64,000 nucleotides of DNA from Terriglobia bacterium. Lineage in GTDB: Bacteria; Acidobacteriota; Terriglobia; 2-12-FULL-54-10. Below, in pieces: positions 2,077 to 6,302 of the stretch. Made by a program: the position numbers and the translations under genes. Where the stretch lies: the NCBI GenBank assembly GCA_963666975.2, contig CAXVYR010000002.1, positions 224,001-288,000 on the forward strand, read 5' to 3'. A model generated the notes under the pieces. The model was not told where the DNA came from. It did no database searches and saw only the letters and a list, made by a program, of their open reading frames with translations. The number at the start of each line of letters is the position of its first letter. The first letter of the stretch is position 1.

Positions 2077-2736
2077 TCACGAAAGAGCGCCCGGAATCTC
2101 CGCTGTGAATTTGCGGACACGCTCCCAAATTTCTTCCAGCACATCCAGCAGTTGGTGGTCCGAGTCATAGAGAACCAACTCGGCGTTTGAGCGGTCTTCG
2201 GCAAACCGGACCGAAAGACGGTGGTCCACCGTCTCATCGGCGCGTCCGTGGACAACCAGCGCGGGCTGACGGACGTCGGGAAAGGCCTCATACTGCAGGG
2301 CGTCTTCCAGAAGACGGTAGGAAAGATTGCGGACCTGCTTTTCGCCAAAGTGGTACACCTGACGCTGACCCCGCTCTCGCCACTCGCGCATGACATCCTC
2401 GCCGAGCGAGGCTGCCCAGTACCGTGCCAGGTCGAAGGCCGGGGCCAGCAAGACCACGCCCGGAACGCGCCGGAGATGCCGCGCCGCGAACAGCGCCGCC
2501 AGGTAAGCTCCCATGCTGGAGCCGATCAAAACGGCAGGCCCTGCTCCCACCAGCCGGTCCAGCAACGACAGTTGCCGCGAGAGTGTAGTGTTTTCAAAGT
2601 CGCCCTCGGTCAAATCCGGCAGCTGGAGTTCGTAGCCCAGCTCCGCGAACCGCTGGCGGAAAAACTGCCCCTTGCTCGAATCCGGCCCGGAAGCAAATCC
2701 ATGCAGATAGAACAGGGTAAAGTGATCGCTTGACAA
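2077..2736 (-). CDS. YqiA/YcfP-family alpha/beta hydrolase (esterase)
   Basis: YLHGFASGP, GSSMG nucleophile elbow, HGRADETV, SDH. Confidence 0.85.
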   Translation of the reverse strand: MSSDHFTLFYLHGFASGPDSSKGQFFRQRFAELGYELQLPDLTEGDFENTTLSRQLSLLDRLVGAGPAVLIGSSMGAYLAALFAARHLRRVPGVVLLAPAFDLARYWAASLGEDVMREWRERGQRQVYHFGEKQVRNLSYRLLEDALQYEAFPDVRQPALVVHGRADETVDHRLSVRFAEDRSNAELVLYDSDHQLLDVLEEIWERVRKFTAEIPGALS

Positions 2737-2930
2737 GCAGAAATTCCTTCATTCACCCTGGCATGGACGCTCGAACGTCTTAGCAGCGAATCCGCGCCGG
2801 GTGTTTTTCTCCAGATTTCTATCCAGCTTTTATATCCAGCTTTTTATTCGGGGAGCCATCCTAGTCCATTTTGCGGGGTGCGTAAAGGATTAGGCGTCAG
2901 CGGGTAGTGGGGTCACAGATTGGCGATGCT

Positions 2931-3137
2931 CTATCCGCGATCTAGCCGAATTGCCTGAAGGGTAGCATGGATTGCTTTAGCACGTTCGTCCTGGGCCAGC
3001 CTTCGCCATTTTTTCTTCTTTGCTTCTGTGCTAGCCTTATCGCCCATTTTGTCTAGTTCGAGGGCCCTCCGCGTGTGCTTAATAGCTTCGTTGTCGTAGA
3101 AGGCTGCCGCCACTTTGTCACCCAAACGCCCTGCCAT
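2931..3137 (-). CDS. Small basic hypothetical protein downstream of the IS1 transposase
   Basis: ORF MAGRLGDKVAAAF... preceded by an AAGGGGG purine tract; no recognised family. Confidence 0.45.
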   Translation of the reverse strand: MAGRLGDKVAAAFYDNEAIKHTRRALELDKMGDKASTEAKKKKWRRLAQDERAKAIHATLQAIRLDRG

Positions 3138-3151
3138 TTTTTTATCCCCCT

Positions 3152-4096
3152 TTATTCGATAAGTTCTCCAAGGCTCCAAATGTGATCCGTGATCCCTGCC
3201 TCCATCGCAGGCGTTACGCGCAGTGTGCCATGAATCCGACAGAAATTATAGTGAGCAAAATGCAAGGCTAGGGCAGCCTGCAAATTCTCCCATTTCTTGC
3301 TGAAAGCGTAGGTCAGCCGGGTAAGCCTCTTGCACCATTGCCGGAGAGTCCCATTCTGCCTTTCCACATGGCTAGTGCAGATGCGAGCCGGGTCTGGACT
3401 GCCAATAATCGGGGTTGACACGGTTCCTATGACCTCTCCTGGACTGTAACGCTCTCGACCATCTTCTGGCTTGCCGTAGACCTTGACCAGTTGTGCGTAA
3501 TCGACCCGATCTGTGAGGGCGTAATCAATCGCTGACGGGTAGCAGGGGAAGCCGTCCGTGCTAAGCTGAAACGGCCTGTCTGCGGTAGTCTTTCGCACCT
3601 TTGCAATAAATTCGTTTGTGCTGATTTGGTTTCTTTTCCCAAGGTGCCAAGCTACCACCAGCTTCGTGTGCCGTTCGAGTCCGATGAAGGTGTAGGCTTC
3701 CCCGATCTTGTAATTATTTAGCTCAGCAATCCATTTGTGCTGTTCTTTCTTGAACACGAACGACCAAATCTCATCAAGCTGCAAATCTTCCACGGGCACA
3801 TTCCGCAGCCGCTTTTCTAGCAGCCGTTCGCAGTGATCCCCGGCGGCTTTCAGCAGGTTTAGCACTGTCCGCTTTTCCACATGACAAAGGCGAGCAGTGC
3901 CCCTTACGCTGTTCCCTTCCACAAGGCAATGAAGGATCATGTTTACCTTCTCCAGCGGGAGCCGTGCATAGCCCAAGGGCTTGTCCTGAGGCTCGCTGTA
4001 CCGCTTCCCACACTGTTTGCACTGGAATCTCTGAATTGCTTTCTTTCCAAATTTCCCGGCCTTCACCATCTCGATCTCGCAATTGTGGCACGTCAT
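3152..4096 (-). CDS. IS1-family transposase (single ORF: zinc ribbon, HTH, DDE)
   Basis: CxxC...CxxC N-terminus, GNSVRGTARL HTH, LDEIWSFV, STDG, TSHVERQN, LTRLTYAFSKK, HYNFCRIH, TPAMEAG. Confidence 0.9.
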   Translation of the reverse strand: MTCHNCEIEMVKAGKFGKKAIQRFQCKQCGKRYSEPQDKPLGYARLPLEKVNMILHCLVEGNSVRGTARLCHVEKRTVLNLLKAAGDHCERLLEKRLRNVPVEDLQLDEIWSFVFKKEQHKWIAELNNYKIGEAYTFIGLERHTKLVVAWHLGKRNQISTNEFIAKVRKTTADRPFQLSTDGFPCYPSAIDYALTDRVDYAQLVKVYGKPEDGRERYSPGEVIGTVSTPIIGSPDPARICTSHVERQNGTLRQWCKRLTRLTYAFSKKWENLQAALALHFAHYNFCRIHGTLRVTPAMEAGITDHIWSLGELIE

Positions 4097-4222
4097 TTTT
4101 GACCTTGCTTTCTTCGAGCCGGTGAGCCAAAATGACGGAAGGTGTCACAACCTCGTTCTTTGGCTTCGGCCTGAGAATGGCCCCGCTGGTAGCTATAACT
4201 ACTAACGGGGCAGTTATCAAAC

Positions 4223-4323
4223 TGGCGGTGAGGGTCCGATTCGAACGGACGGGAGTCTGGTGTTCTTGGCACCACTCCACCAAATTTACAGTCTGGCGCG
4301 TTAAACCGCTCCGCCATCTCACC
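4223..4323 (-). tRNA. Atypical class II tRNA, anticodon GUA, with Ser-type body and 29-nt variable arm; CCA encoded
   Basis: GGTGAGA-TG-GCG GAGCGGTTTAA CGC-G-CCAGA CTGTAAA TTTGG-[TGGAGTGGTGCCAAGAACACCAGACTCCC]-GTCCG TTCGAAT CGGAC-CCTCACC-G-CCA; A7.C66 mismatch. Confidence 0.85.
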
Positions 4324-4397
4324 ACAGAATCAAAGGCCAGGGAGTTAGGTTTTTGGAACCTCATTCTCTGGCCTTTTGTTTTGTGTAACATAAACGT

Positions 4398-4448
4398 ATT
4401 ATGCAATATTGCATGGATAATGTCAAGGCTTAAAATGCAATATTGCAT
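4398..4448. promoter_or_regulatory. Divergent overlapping sigma70 promoters with two perfect 14-bp palindromes (putative operators)
   Basis: Minus strand TTGACA(4426-4421)-17-CATAAT(4403-4398); plus strand TTGCAT(4409-4414)-16-TAAAAT(4431-4436); ATGCAATATTGCAT at 4401-4414 and 4435-4448. Confidence 0.75.
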
Positions 4449-4469
4449 AAGAAAGCTTTTTGGTGTAGT

Positions 4470-4889
4470 ATGGCGCTGTGGAGGTTCATGGACTATGAAA
4501 CGGAAGATCGTCTAAATCTGATCCAGCAATGGTATGAAGTTCAAGACGACGCCGTGAAAGTAGCCTTTGATTACACGTTGCGTATACTGGCGGCGACAGA
4601 AGATTGGAACGATTCTAGCGTCAAAGAGTTTAAGGTTCTGACTAGAAAGCATGTTGGTCTTTGTGAAATTAGATTCAAAACAGATGCGAGACATCCAAAC
4701 GGTGAACCCTACAAGAGAAGATTTAGGCCGGTAGGGGTATGGCGTCCAGATTCTAGAGATTTTGTGCTTTTGTTAGGCTGTGAGAAATGGGGGATGAATT
4801 ATATCCCCCCAAACGCTTTTGATTTAGCGTTGGATTACAAGACTCAATATTTTGAGCAAGGAAGGGGCGCAATTTATGAGCACATTTAG
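4470..4889 (+). CDS. Putative RelE/ParE-superfamily (HigB/Gp49-like) toxin
   Basis: W.F.DY......N.IQQWY, FKVL...HVGLCEIRFK, RFRPVG, FVLLLGCEK pattern; upstream of and overlapping an HTH gene; start uncertain. Confidence 0.7.
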   Translation: MALWRFMDYETEDRLNLIQQWYEVQDDAVKVAFDYTLRILAATEDWNDSSVKEFKVLTRKHVGLCEIRFKTDARHPNGEPYKRRFRPVGVWRPDSRDFVLLLGCEKWGMNYIPPNAFDLALDYKTQYFEQGRGAIYEHI

Positions 4890-5466
4890 GCAATTGTGGC
4901 TCAAACTTACGAAGAGCAAAAAATACCGAGAGGAGTTCGTTGCTTCTCAGGTCAAGCGTGGAATTCCCTTTCAAATCCGCACGATGATGAAGCATGAGGG
5001 GTTTTCCCAAGAAAAGCTGGCCAAACTTTCCGGTCTGACCCAAGGAGTCGTTTCCAGGGCCGCGAATCCCGATTACGGGAATCTCACGCTTAATACTGTC
5101 ATCAGAGTTGCAGCCGGGTTTGATGTTGCCTTTATCGGACGCTTTGTGCCCTTCAGTGAATTAGGGGGATGGTTTACTAACTTGTCGGAAGAGTCAGGGA
5201 AAATTCCCACGTTTGAGGAAGAGAACAGGGCGATGGAGCAGTGGGGGCCGTCGAGAGAAGAGGGTGACGACTCAAGCGTTGCAGCGGCGATTTCATCTGT
5301 GAACGACAGGTATGACAAACGACCTGCAACCAGAATGGTGGCAGAAGATACTAACGTGCTGACGAAATCGGAGGATGCTCCATCTGACCGGAGGGCGGTA
5401 GAGAATGTACTTGTTAATTACTTGCCCGAGGGTAGGAGCACAATCAATGCGGGGTTATTGCCATGA
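4876..5466 (+). CDS. XRE/HTH_3 antitoxin-like regulator with long C-terminal tail
   Basis: FQIRTMMKHEGFSQEKLAKLSGLTQGVVSRAANPDYGNLTLNTVIRVAAGFDV HTH; overlaps the toxin stop. Confidence 0.8.
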   Translation: MSTFRQLWLKLTKSKKYREEFVASQVKRGIPFQIRTMMKHEGFSQEKLAKLSGLTQGVVSRAANPDYGNLTLNTVIRVAAGFDVAFIGRFVPFSELGGWFTNLSEESGKIPTFEEENRAMEQWGPSREEGDDSSVAAAISSVNDRYDKRPATRMVAEDTNVLTKSEDAPSDRRAVENVLVNYLPEGRSTINAGLLP

Positions 5467-5879
5467 CAAAGAAGGAACCAACTAAACAGATCAACGACGT
5501 CGAAGTGGTCGAGGAACAATTACCATTCCCTCATCCAGAAAATTATGCTTACACGAATGCTGCGCTGATTTCCATGTCAAGCTGGGACATTAGGTTGTCT
5601 TTTGCAGAAACACGCCCTAATTCAGAGGCCATATCCAAGGCTGGCGTTGTAATGACCCCCGCCCATTTTAAGGCGCTCACCGTTGCAATGTTCCAAAACT
5701 TGAAAAGTTACGAATCAGTGTACGGTGAGATTATCATCCCTCTGCCCAAGCAACCAGAACAAGCCAAACCAAAGGAAGAAGGCGTAGTTGAGAAGGGGGA
5801 GCAGGCCGGGAAAAAGGCCGAGACGGAAGGGATGCGGGTTCCCAGACCGCCAATCAAACGCACAACAAAGCCACGCTAA
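5463..5879 (+). CDS. DUF3467-like protein
   Basis: YTNAALISMSSWDIRLSF...VVMTPAHFKAL...L..YESVYGEI pattern; ATGA overlap with the antitoxin. Confidence 0.65.
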   Translation: MTKKEPTKQINDVEVVEEQLPFPHPENYAYTNAALISMSSWDIRLSFAETRPNSEAISKAGVVMTPAHFKALTVAMFQNLKSYESVYGEIIIPLPKQPEQAKPKEEGVVEKGEQAGKKAETEGMRVPRPPIKRTTKPR

Positions 5880-6250
5880 AGCCCTACAACCCCAGCAAGC
5901 GATCAGGTATCAATGCGGGGTTATTGCCATGACGCACAAACTTGGCGCATTGCCCATCGCCAATCTATGACCCCACTACCCGTCATCGGCATCCATCAAG
6001 ATTGGTATGCCCTTCCGAAAATGTTTTTTTAGACAATAACCATGACACCAAAGGTGCTGACTTGAGCCTTGGAGGTGGTCATTACCGAGAGTCACCGTCA
6101 GACTTACGGGATCATAATCCAGATTCCTCGATAGATTTCCCACAAAAACAGCACTCATAGCCCTTTTCCATCGTGAGGCTATGATGCCACGGAAGCCCGC
6201 CTGATTCCCATTTTTTCCAAACTAGAGCACTACCCAAACCCTTCTCCCAC

Positions 6251-6279
6251 TTGACATTTTCCGCCTGCTTCACTAATCT
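6251..6279 (+). promoter_or_regulatory. sigma70 promoter of rplM-rpsI
   Basis: TTGACA-17-TAATCT just upstream of rplM. Confidence 0.7.
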
Positions 6280-6302
6280 GGTTACTCTTTAACATTGTTG
6301 AG

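Follow-up and report, generated by a model that had tools for sequence, protein, structure and literature searches.

The window, that is the whole stretch of 64,000 nucleotides (nt) analysed here (Terriglobia bacterium, assembly GCA_963666975.2, contig CAXVYR010000002.1, positions 224,001 to 288,000 of the forward strand), carries at positions 4223-4323 of its minus strand a tRNA gene whose anticodon, GUA, is that of tyrosine and whose body resembles that of serine tRNAs. The gene lies within a transposon of the IS1 family, in which promoter, hairpin, tRNA, a second hairpin, leader and transposase follow one another, with a Gp49-like/XRE/DUF3467 operon running divergently. As argued below, we are probably dealing with a mobile, switchable mistranslation device rather than with a broken gene. 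The features of the locus are the following (L, G and C labels denote our loci, genomes and contigs).

2901-2938, no strand: left terminal inverted repeat of 38 nt, 87% complementary to 5945-5982; homology with the congener ends at about 2902, and the same GGTAGTGGGGTC termini occur in L078, L082, L085 and L087.
2931-3179, minus strand: small open reading frame (ORF) of 82 amino acids (aa), overlapping the transposase stop by 28 nt.
3152-4096, minus strand: intact IS1-family DDE transposase of 314 aa (Pfam DDE_Tnp_IS1, 32.4 bits with a cut-off of 24.1; NCBIfam IS1, 97.3 with a cut-off of 100).
4180-4211, minus strand: conserved hairpin that opens the transposase leader and immediately follows the 3' end of the tRNA; its stem varies in a compensatory way from element to element, tRNA-less ones included.
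4223-4323, minus strand: class-II 7/5 tRNA with anticodon GUA, G73, encoded CCA, a 29-nt variable region and A7.C66 (Rfam 46.9 bits; parsed arms; 82.4 bits under our own covariance model R1).
4335-4373, no strand: hairpin (inverted repeat) between promoter and tRNA, with a T run on the plus strand; stem and T run are conserved in L008, L009 and L023.
4398-4426, minus strand: sigma-70-like promoter TTGACA-17-CATAAT, directed toward the tRNA and the transposase, 11/12 consensus, with equivalents at the same place in related elements.
4401-4448, no strand: two palindromes ATGCAATATTGCAT, at 4401-4414 and 4435-4448, around the promoter (exact 14-nt repeat plus 16-nt inverted repeat).
4470-4889, plus strand: first gene of the divergent operon, 139 aa, with 12 homologues aligned; possible Gp49/HigB-like toxin, as a lead only.
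4879-5466, plus strand: XRE-family helix-turn-helix protein (Pfam HTH_3, 25 bits with a cut-off of 23), with homologues in 11 related loci.
5463-5879, plus strand: DUF3467 protein, third gene of the operon (Pfam PF11950, E-value 1.2e-11).
5945-5982, no strand: right terminal inverted repeat, 38 nt, pairing with 2901-2938.

The tRNA gene is 101 nt long and matches Rfam RF00005 at 4226-4323 of the minus strand with 46.9 bits (gathering score 29; E-value 7e-07 for the whole window), and the only non-standard pair marked in this match is 7-66; ARAGORN makes no call for it. Parsed on the reverse complement, the gene has an acceptor stem GGTGAGA/CCTCACC with the A7.C66 mismatch, a D stem of 3 bp with an 11-nt loop, an anticodon arm CCAGA-CTGTAAA-TTTGG with GUA in the 7-nt loop, a variable region consisting of a T, a stem of 5+4 bp with an AG bulge, a 7-nt loop and a C, and a T arm GTCCG-TTCGAAT-CGGAC. 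The gene keeps T33, A37, G18G19, its T loop and CCA, and an eighth acceptor pair is impossible, T8 standing opposite C65. The RNA alone folds at -36.8 kcal/mol, with z = -2.0 relative to shuffles. The original prediction, a note made from the letters alone, had described a complete 7/5 cloverleaf with encoded CCA, G73 and a 29-nt variable arm flanked by one unpaired base on each side, and had set this fold apart from the 8/4 and 9/3 allo-tRNAs; in the Rfam match and the parsed arms every structural feature of that description is present, and the fold is indeed 7/5.

The element that carries this tRNA measures 3.08 kb between its inverted repeats. In the congener G002 both flanks of the site stand 367 nt apart, versus about 3.3 kb in the window, and a further genome, G001, is likewise without the element at this site; moreover the same termini bound units of 2.9-3.1 kb in four of the seven related loci examined. 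Thus a DDE transposase, terminal inverted repeats and an empty homologous site in a relative, the marks of an IS1-family element, are all found here. There is no clear direct repeat at the ends that would represent a target-site duplication, and the right flank has diverged from the congener. A search of plasmids gave no match to the 3.08-kb element, and the tRNA was not found in 13 genomes of the same family. Taken as a whole the tRNA is almost certainly transposon cargo, and it sits in a slot that is conserved among related elements. The 82-aa ORF matches no family at the required threshold, and a search of the related loci gave no homologue of it; the frames of the transposase, the XRE protein, the DUF3467 protein and the first operon gene are all open.

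The arrangement around the promoter suggests how the element may be controlled. The promoter at 4398-4426 is the sole promoter-like site found within 3800-4800, and on the tRNA strand of the same interval no terminator-like site lies between the tRNA and the transposase. The hairpin at 4335-4373 looks like a terminator against antisense read-through, which would shield the divergent operon from transcription entering the transposon; in the region 4335-4383, as in L036, L008, L009 and L023, the T run is on the opposite strand only, and in elements lacking the tRNA the single leader hairpin has this same terminator-like form. Two palindromes are found at the same place in relatives, with a different sequence, and those of the window are putative operators of the XRE protein, which in turn would be a repressor or antitoxin. 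An HTH_3 protein together with two exact palindromes at the promoter is in fact what the sequence of a type II toxin-antitoxin module would display. Concerning the putative toxin, the 139-aa protein has no Pfam, NCBIfam or PHROG match; a protein-atlas lead points to clusters with PF05973 Gp49 (score 0.92), and its alignment profile gave chance-level matches only against solved structures (best E-value 0.065). The third gene encodes a DUF3467 protein in 12 of 12 related elements, with no match of the alignment profile among solved structures, and the order toxin-like/XRE/DUF3467 at 4470-5879 recalls toxin-antitoxin-chaperone systems. In this order the XRE protein ends in a long C-terminal tail (183-318 aa in relatives). 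A perfect 25-nt direct repeat (5443-5467 and 5909-5933) brackets the DUF3467 gene, the first copy lying over its start codon and the second 12 nt before the right inverted repeat, and this could be a trace of the gain or duplication of that gene.

To place the tRNA among its relatives, two kinds of search are available. When 185,579 species genomes were scanned by pattern for GUA tRNAs of class-II size with G73-CCA, 17 loci emerged, in 10 of which ARAGORN calls a full tRNA. Five loci bear Acidobacteria-type labels (L008, L009, L016, L018 and L023): in L008, L009 and L018 a transposase homologue of 47-71% identity lies about 127-145 nt downstream of the GUA/G73 tRNA on the same strand, in L016 a homologue of 43% identity lies further downstream on the same strand, and L023 has a fragment only; the divergent operon is also present in L009 and L023. 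Outside this group the scan met a class-II GUA/G73 tRNA with serine-like arms and G3.U70 beside an IS1595-family transposase (L012, 4724-5824, on a Rhodospirillaceae-labelled contig), and another in what looks like a prophage, along with a YqaJ recombinase and a repressor resembling CI (L019:2942-3031, Rhizobiales-labelled), of which an identical copy occurs on a viral contig (L151:8787-8845).

The second kind of search used the transposase only and is therefore unbiased for the tRNA. The transposase is present in 67 of 401 genomes of the phylum, a tally that includes the unpublished G206, and among 29 loci fetched from this search a same-strand tRNA lies about 120 nt upstream in two (L034 and L053). 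In another genome of the phylum, three identical-scoring homologues stand in tandem, 2555 nt apart (G184:C2). From metagenomes, 80 loci were kept of at least 525 confirmed transposase relatives, and 69 of them have at least 150 nt of upstream sequence. Among the matches listed, to which all of the following metagenome counts refer, a tRNA or tRNA-like piece ends 123-133 nt before the start codon in 21 of the 69; the 27 closest relatives (53-75% identity) include 19 with such a tRNA or piece in the slot, and the other eight keep promoter, two palindromes, hairpin and leader without any tRNA. The anticodons of the 21 slots are diverse, namely UAC (5), GCU (5), ACU (4), GUA (2), CGC (2) and CCG (1), besides one ambiguous case and one mini tRNA-like piece without anticodon arm; two pairs of loci in this tally are identical copies. 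G73 and the long arm both recur in homologues found through the transposase alone, so that they are not private mutations of a pseudo-tRNA-Tyr, the outcome that the original prediction had named as speaking against itself.

Besides ordinary cloverleaves, the slot accommodates two unusual forms. In L075 (1322-1432), L081 (1512-1622) and L076 the slot tRNAs are 111-129 nt long and have a large D-loop insertion that forms an extra arm with its own anticodon-like 7-nt loop (CTCATAT, CTGATAC and CTCTAAA), the regular anticodon being GCU in all three. In L084 and in a second transposase copy of G002 (L031 on contig C213, 74% identical) the slot holds a 73-nt piece with an acceptor GGGGCTG/CAGCTCC or GGGCCTG/CAGGTCC containing G3.U70, with A73, CCA and a T arm, and with no regular D or anticodon arm; we take these pieces to resemble the tRNA-like domain of transfer-messenger RNA. 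When 25 slot tRNAs are catalogued, seven are serine-type class-II bodies with non-serine anticodons and five have G3.U70 with a non-alanine anticodon or without an anticodon arm, so that body and anticodon disagree, or the anticodon arm is missing, in 12 of the 25. Serine-type and G3.U70 acceptors stand for the two identities that synthetases read without the anticodon.

Selection on these tRNAs can be followed in the alignment of 12 class-II members, in which 96.9% of the cells pair and 13 of 19 pairs have changed on both sides; none of 500 shuffles reaches this, and slid controls give at most five such pairs. All four stems covary, D and anticodon as well as acceptor and T, and each class-II anticodon loop counts 7 nt, position 33 being T and position 37 a purine. 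The tRNA of the window is therefore not a chance cloverleaf, because its homologues show compensatory changes, and we regard it with high confidence as a real, selected tRNA gene. The anticodon behaves differently from the body. For example, the tRNAs of L080 (UAC) and L086 (GUA) show no difference over positions 1-33 or in the 3' half of the anticodon stem, yet five of the seven loop positions are different, and the transposase DNA of the two is only 73.6% identical; moreover UAC and GUA are each found with no fewer than two types of body, GGCGAGT and GGAGAGG. This suggests that the anticodon is the selected, variable specificity part, replaced discretely on a body that is strongly conserved. 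GUA and UAC, which in L080, L086, L008, L071 and L072 occur on the same serine-type bodies, are exact reverse complements. Were the anticodon hairpin inverted, one would turn into the other while stem, T33 and A37 stayed as they are, so that such an inversion could, as a speculation, toggle between them. As a proof of switching, loop inversion was rejected: the reverse complement of CTGTAAA predicts T32, A37 and G38, and no UAC loop observed agrees at more than one of the three, so that a recent inversion has no clear support from these positions.

The position of the slot invites an explanation that needs no decoding at all, namely that the tRNA shape is a leader module, a site for RNase P or RNase Z or a chargeable structure, through which stability or translation of the transposase mRNA would be adjusted, with an anticodon that has no role on the ribosome. 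The tRNA indeed follows the one promoter detected and precedes the transposase start, its strand there has no terminator-like site, the distance of 123-133 nt to the start codon is fixed across elements, the slot takes up acceptor/T-half pieces with CCA as well as extra-arm tRNAs, and the available text of PMC5389517 reports that in Escherichia coli several irregular acidobacterial tRNAs either received an amino acid without being used or were inactive. However, the transposase does not need the tRNA, because the eight tRNA-less elements among the 27 closest keep promoter, hairpin and leader; covariation extends to the D and anticodon stems, for which processing by itself gives no reason; the class-II loops retain 7 nt, T33 and a purine at 37; and the replacement of nothing but the loop, the bodies being otherwise identical, singles out the anticodon as the object of selection. 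The leaders, besides, are near-identical across different anticodons, and hence leader and anticodon do not pair with each other; a T-box-like interaction of the two was discarded for this reason. On balance we consider a non-decoding leader module unlikely, though it deserves the most attention among the alternatives.

A second alternative is that the slot tRNA was functional once and is now drifting in the window copy as a passenger without present function. The original prediction had taken the A7.C66 mismatch as a possible sign of decay, and of the 13 class-II tRNAs set side by side only this copy has it; the remaining stems of the copy are intact. Consistent with drift, the variable region of the window copy is also the longest of the 13 (29 nt versus 16-24), its R1 score of 82.4 bits is low among the transposase-linked GUA and UAC class-II tRNAs (L072 has 82.5, the others 88-100), the 13 genomes of the same family lack the tRNA, and the inverted repeats are only 87% complementary. 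Yet T33, A37, G18G19, the T loop and CCA are present, the transposase, XRE, DUF3467 and first-gene frames are open, the promoter agrees with the consensus at 11 of 12 positions, and the defect, one A.C pair at the foot of the acceptor stem, is slight. There is furthermore a faint sign of transcription: 20 public runs contain part of the window, and in one metatranscriptome run a 178-nt contig equals 4158-4335 with 100% identity, spanning the tRNA with 12 nt of 5' and 65 nt of 3' leader, while other RNA-library contigs fall on the first operon gene. No contig of these runs lies over the transposase, 2700-4157 or 4966-6300, which says nothing on expression there. Small word shares in some of the runs, habitat-labelled ones among them, are given no weight as to habitat. 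The mismatch may reflect a slight decay of this copy, but a passenger that has lost its function altogether appears quite improbable.

Which amino acid the tRNA would carry can be judged by comparison with the tRNAs of its host. The 4.23-Mb genome has 48 ARAGORN tRNAs, among them a single tRNA-Tyr, which is normal (GUA with A73) and lies in a Thr-Thr-Gly-Tyr cluster on contig C4, and four tRNA-Ser with Rfam support. The tRNA of the transposon is thus extra to the normal set; the housekeeping tRNA-Tyr is a different gene at another place in the genome, and its discriminator is A73. Two other tRNA-like hits lie in the genome: a 96-nt 'tRNA-Ser(aga)' called by ARAGORN (G000:C3:934710-934805, anticodon at 38) is without Rfam support and probably false, and a weak 36-bit Rfam tRNA-like match (G000:C4:1149415-1149481) has a T arm and CCA with a defective 5' half, no ARAGORN call, ordinary-looking gene neighbours and no transposase nearby. 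When its parts are compared one by one, the acceptor of the transposon tRNA shares 13 of 14 bases with the host tRNA-Ser(CGA) and the discriminator is G in both; T is the first base of the variable region and C the last in both; the unpaired bases flanking the variable stem are 1+1 as in the host tRNA-Ser, against 1+3 in the host tRNA-Tyr; and the T arm is nearest to tRNA-Ser (13/17). The anticodon stem is nearest to the host tRNA-Leu (9/10) and then to the host tRNA-Tyr (7/10). By BLAST, positions 5-44 have 88% identity to the canonical tRNA-Tyr of a sister family, which also has A73, and positions 8-43 have 89% identity to the tRNA-Tyr of three Erwinia phages; in the phage search only these tRNA-Tyr-like D and anticodon arms matched. 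A chimera of a serine body and a tyrosine anticodon arm is what the original prediction had proposed, and in silico the mosaic holds, Ser-like in acceptor, G73 and variable arm and Tyr-like at 5-44, although its transposon setting had been missed.

Further evidence comes from the covariance model R1, built from 12 slot-tRNA relatives of which eight are GUA. On the host tRNAs it gives 76.0-80.5 bits to the four tRNA-Ser, 78.1 to tRNA-Tyr and 46.8-59.1 to three tRNA-Leu, the remaining two tRNA-Leu falling short of an E-value of 0.01. The body of the R1 tRNAs is therefore serine-like, because only the host tRNA-Tyr shares the R1 anticodon loop and yet tRNA-Ser scores as high. With regard to the identity elements themselves, the excerpts at hand of the 2023 review PMC9976931 state that A73 and U35 are critical for tyrosylation, that G73 of E. 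coli tRNA-Ser is an antideterminant for tyrosyl- and leucyl-tRNA synthetase (TyrRS and LeuRS), that G1-C72 and G2-C71 are conserved across bacterial tRNA-Ser, and that serine identity resides in the variable arm and not in the anticodon. The tRNA of the window has the long Ser-type variable arm, G73, G1-C72 and G2-C71; it has no serine anticodon (NGA or GCU), carrying GUA instead, and of the tyrosine features it shows the GUA loop without A73 or the 1+3 geometry of the variable arm. Serine is thus the most likely amino acid, because all serine features of the body are present and A73 is absent, and the tRNA would probably, if by no means surely, be charged with it.

The same comparison bears on a simpler possibility, that of a true additional tRNA-Tyr, charged with tyrosine, which raises the supply or replaces a host tRNA-Tyr cut by an anticodon nuclease. 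Mobile elements do carry tRNAs against tRNA-cleaving defences. In keeping with this, the loop CTGTAAA and the 31-39 A-T pair are those of canonical tRNA-Tyr, the likeness to the sister-family and phage tRNA-Tyr extends over the segments given above, and GUA/G73 class-II tRNAs stand also beside the IS1595 transposase of L012 and in the prophage of L019, with its copy in L151. Opposed to it are G73 in the place of the A73 that TyrRS finds critical, this G73 acting against TyrRS in E. coli according to the same excerpts of PMC9976931; A73 in the canonical tRNA-Tyr of both host and sister family; a variable-arm geometry that is serine-like and not the 1+3 of the host tRNA-Tyr; and the occurrence of the same bodies with UAC anticodons, which tyrosine supply does not explain. 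We therefore find a tyrosine-charged tRNA scarcely probable, the least so of the explanations weighed here.

Putting these observations together, the explanation that we favour overall is an intact, derepressible cargo tRNA of the transposon, charged with serine and decoding tyrosine codons as serine, a reading held tentatively and at a little under an even chance. In such a scheme the tRNA and the transposase would be transcribed together from the one palindrome-flanked promoter, under the control of the XRE protein of the divergent operon, and the normal tRNA-processing enzymes would excise the tRNA from the co-transcript. Seryl-tRNA synthetase (SerRS), being blind to the anticodon, would then charge it by way of G1-C72, G2-C71, C11-G24, G73 and the long serine-type variable arm, and derepression would bring serine to UAC and UAU in competition with the single normal tRNA-Tyr. 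Judged by its features, mistranslation of tyrosine codons as serine is the best-supported mechanism for the tRNA, although unproven; that the tRNA is actually used in translation is a more doubtful proposition than its charging, and one to which we give somewhat less than an even chance.

Several observations weigh against this interpretation and should be kept in mind. The A7.C66 mismatch and the exceptional length of the variable region set the window copy apart from its relatives, as seen above. The mini pieces of L084 and L031 share the slot with the extra-arm tRNAs of L075, L076 and L081, which suggests that the acceptor/T half alone may suffice for the role of the slot. Tyrosine codons of the transposase lie at Tyr-conserved columns and are not avoided (2.79 per 100 codons versus 2.72 in others), and therefore the element would mistranslate its own transposase. 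The available text of PMC5389517, moreover, describes several irregular acidobacterial tRNAs as inactive in E. coli translation, and the RNA evidence for the tRNA is weak, consisting of a single low-depth contig for which carry-over of DNA is possible. A programmed recoding of the transposase, with serine columns written as UAY in GUA elements and as GUR in UAC elements, was considered and rejected: the cognate codons stand in columns that conserve their usual amino acid and show no enrichment or avoidance.

A wider scenario may be sketched, which we regard as rather unlikely in its full extent. In it, IS1-family transposons of Acidobacteria would possess an exchangeable tRNA cassette slot, filled with anticodon-blind serine or G3.U70 alanine bodies, and the tRNA would be an XRE-silenced RNA toxin directed against one codon, so that derepression by stress or infection would poison the proteome and the tRNA would act as an addiction or abortive-infection arm. 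To our knowledge natural tRNAs that break the genetic code on purpose are rare. If serine insertion at tyrosine or valine codons is true, it would mean a regulated mistranslation that spreads horizontally, and it would provide natural missense-suppressor scaffolds. The native role of the irregular acidobacterial tRNAs has been open since 2017, and the locus offers a defined, testable 3-kb unit: a single promoter, a pair of candidate operators, a single repressor gene and a single tRNA, whose canonical cloverleaf makes for simpler assays than the 8/4 and 9/3 forms do.

To sum up, the element can be set beside several known systems. For searches of the literature from 2017 on, no missense-suppressor serine tRNA in a mobile genetic element was found, and, among the matches listed for work on passenger genes and toxin-antitoxin modules of insertion sequences, the titles and abstract beginnings describe no tRNA in a transposase leader. 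Mistranslating anticodon variants of tRNA-Ser, engineered or human, act on the same principle that SerRS ignores the anticodon, and in the parts available of PMC12993449 and PMC9258585 they are point mutants of chromosomal genes; the tRNA of the window, unlike these, has Tyr-like D and anticodon arms, is mobile, is conserved across elements and is apparently under the control of a repressor. As to the divergent operon, the toxin-antitoxin modules of the Tn3 family (Lima-Mendez et al. 2020, PMC7157771, in the text available) likewise place a toxin-antitoxin-like operon, in their case with Gp49-type toxins among others, beside the transposase, and a regulatory link to transposition has been proposed for them there; they belong to another transposon family and that text describes no tRNA, whereas in the window the family is IS1 and the tRNA shares the regulated intergenic region. 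By analogy these modules may be taken as the nearest analogue of the window operon.

For the tRNA itself the comparison leads to the allo-tRNAs of Acidobacteria (Mukai et al. 2017, PMC5389517, cited here from its text, figures and supplements aside), which have an 8/4 or 9/3 arrangement, serine identity and anticodons for 35 codons, and which are located near toxin-antitoxin genes and a transposon-related protein; two of them put serine at leucine codons in E. coli, where induction arrested growth, and others were inactive. Like them, our tRNA belongs to the same bacterial group according to the record labels of related loci, combines Ser-type identity elements (in silico here) with non-serine anticodons that are very diverse across the slot, and is associated with toxin-antitoxin-like genes and a transposable element in Acidobacteria; the native function of the allo-tRNAs was left open in that text as suppressor and/or regulatory RNA, and the same holds for the tRNA described here. 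The allo-tRNAs differ in their 8/4 or 9/3 body with a long D stem like that of tRNA-Sec, against the plain 7/5 class-II body and 3-bp D stem of the window. An E-loop tRNA with a GCU anticodon, reported there from acidobacterial polycistrons, matches the slot tRNAs of L075, L076 and L081, whereas the window tRNA, compared with these E-loop and G-1 irregular forms, is without the extra arm. The same text contains no fixed IS1-family leader slot, bounding repeats, three-gene operon or loop-only replacement of anticodons, and neither do the literature matches listed. Thus, although the tRNA lacks the 8/4 or 9/3 arrangement by which they are defined, it is similar to the acidobacterial allo-tRNAs on paper, and these appear to be its closest known relatives.

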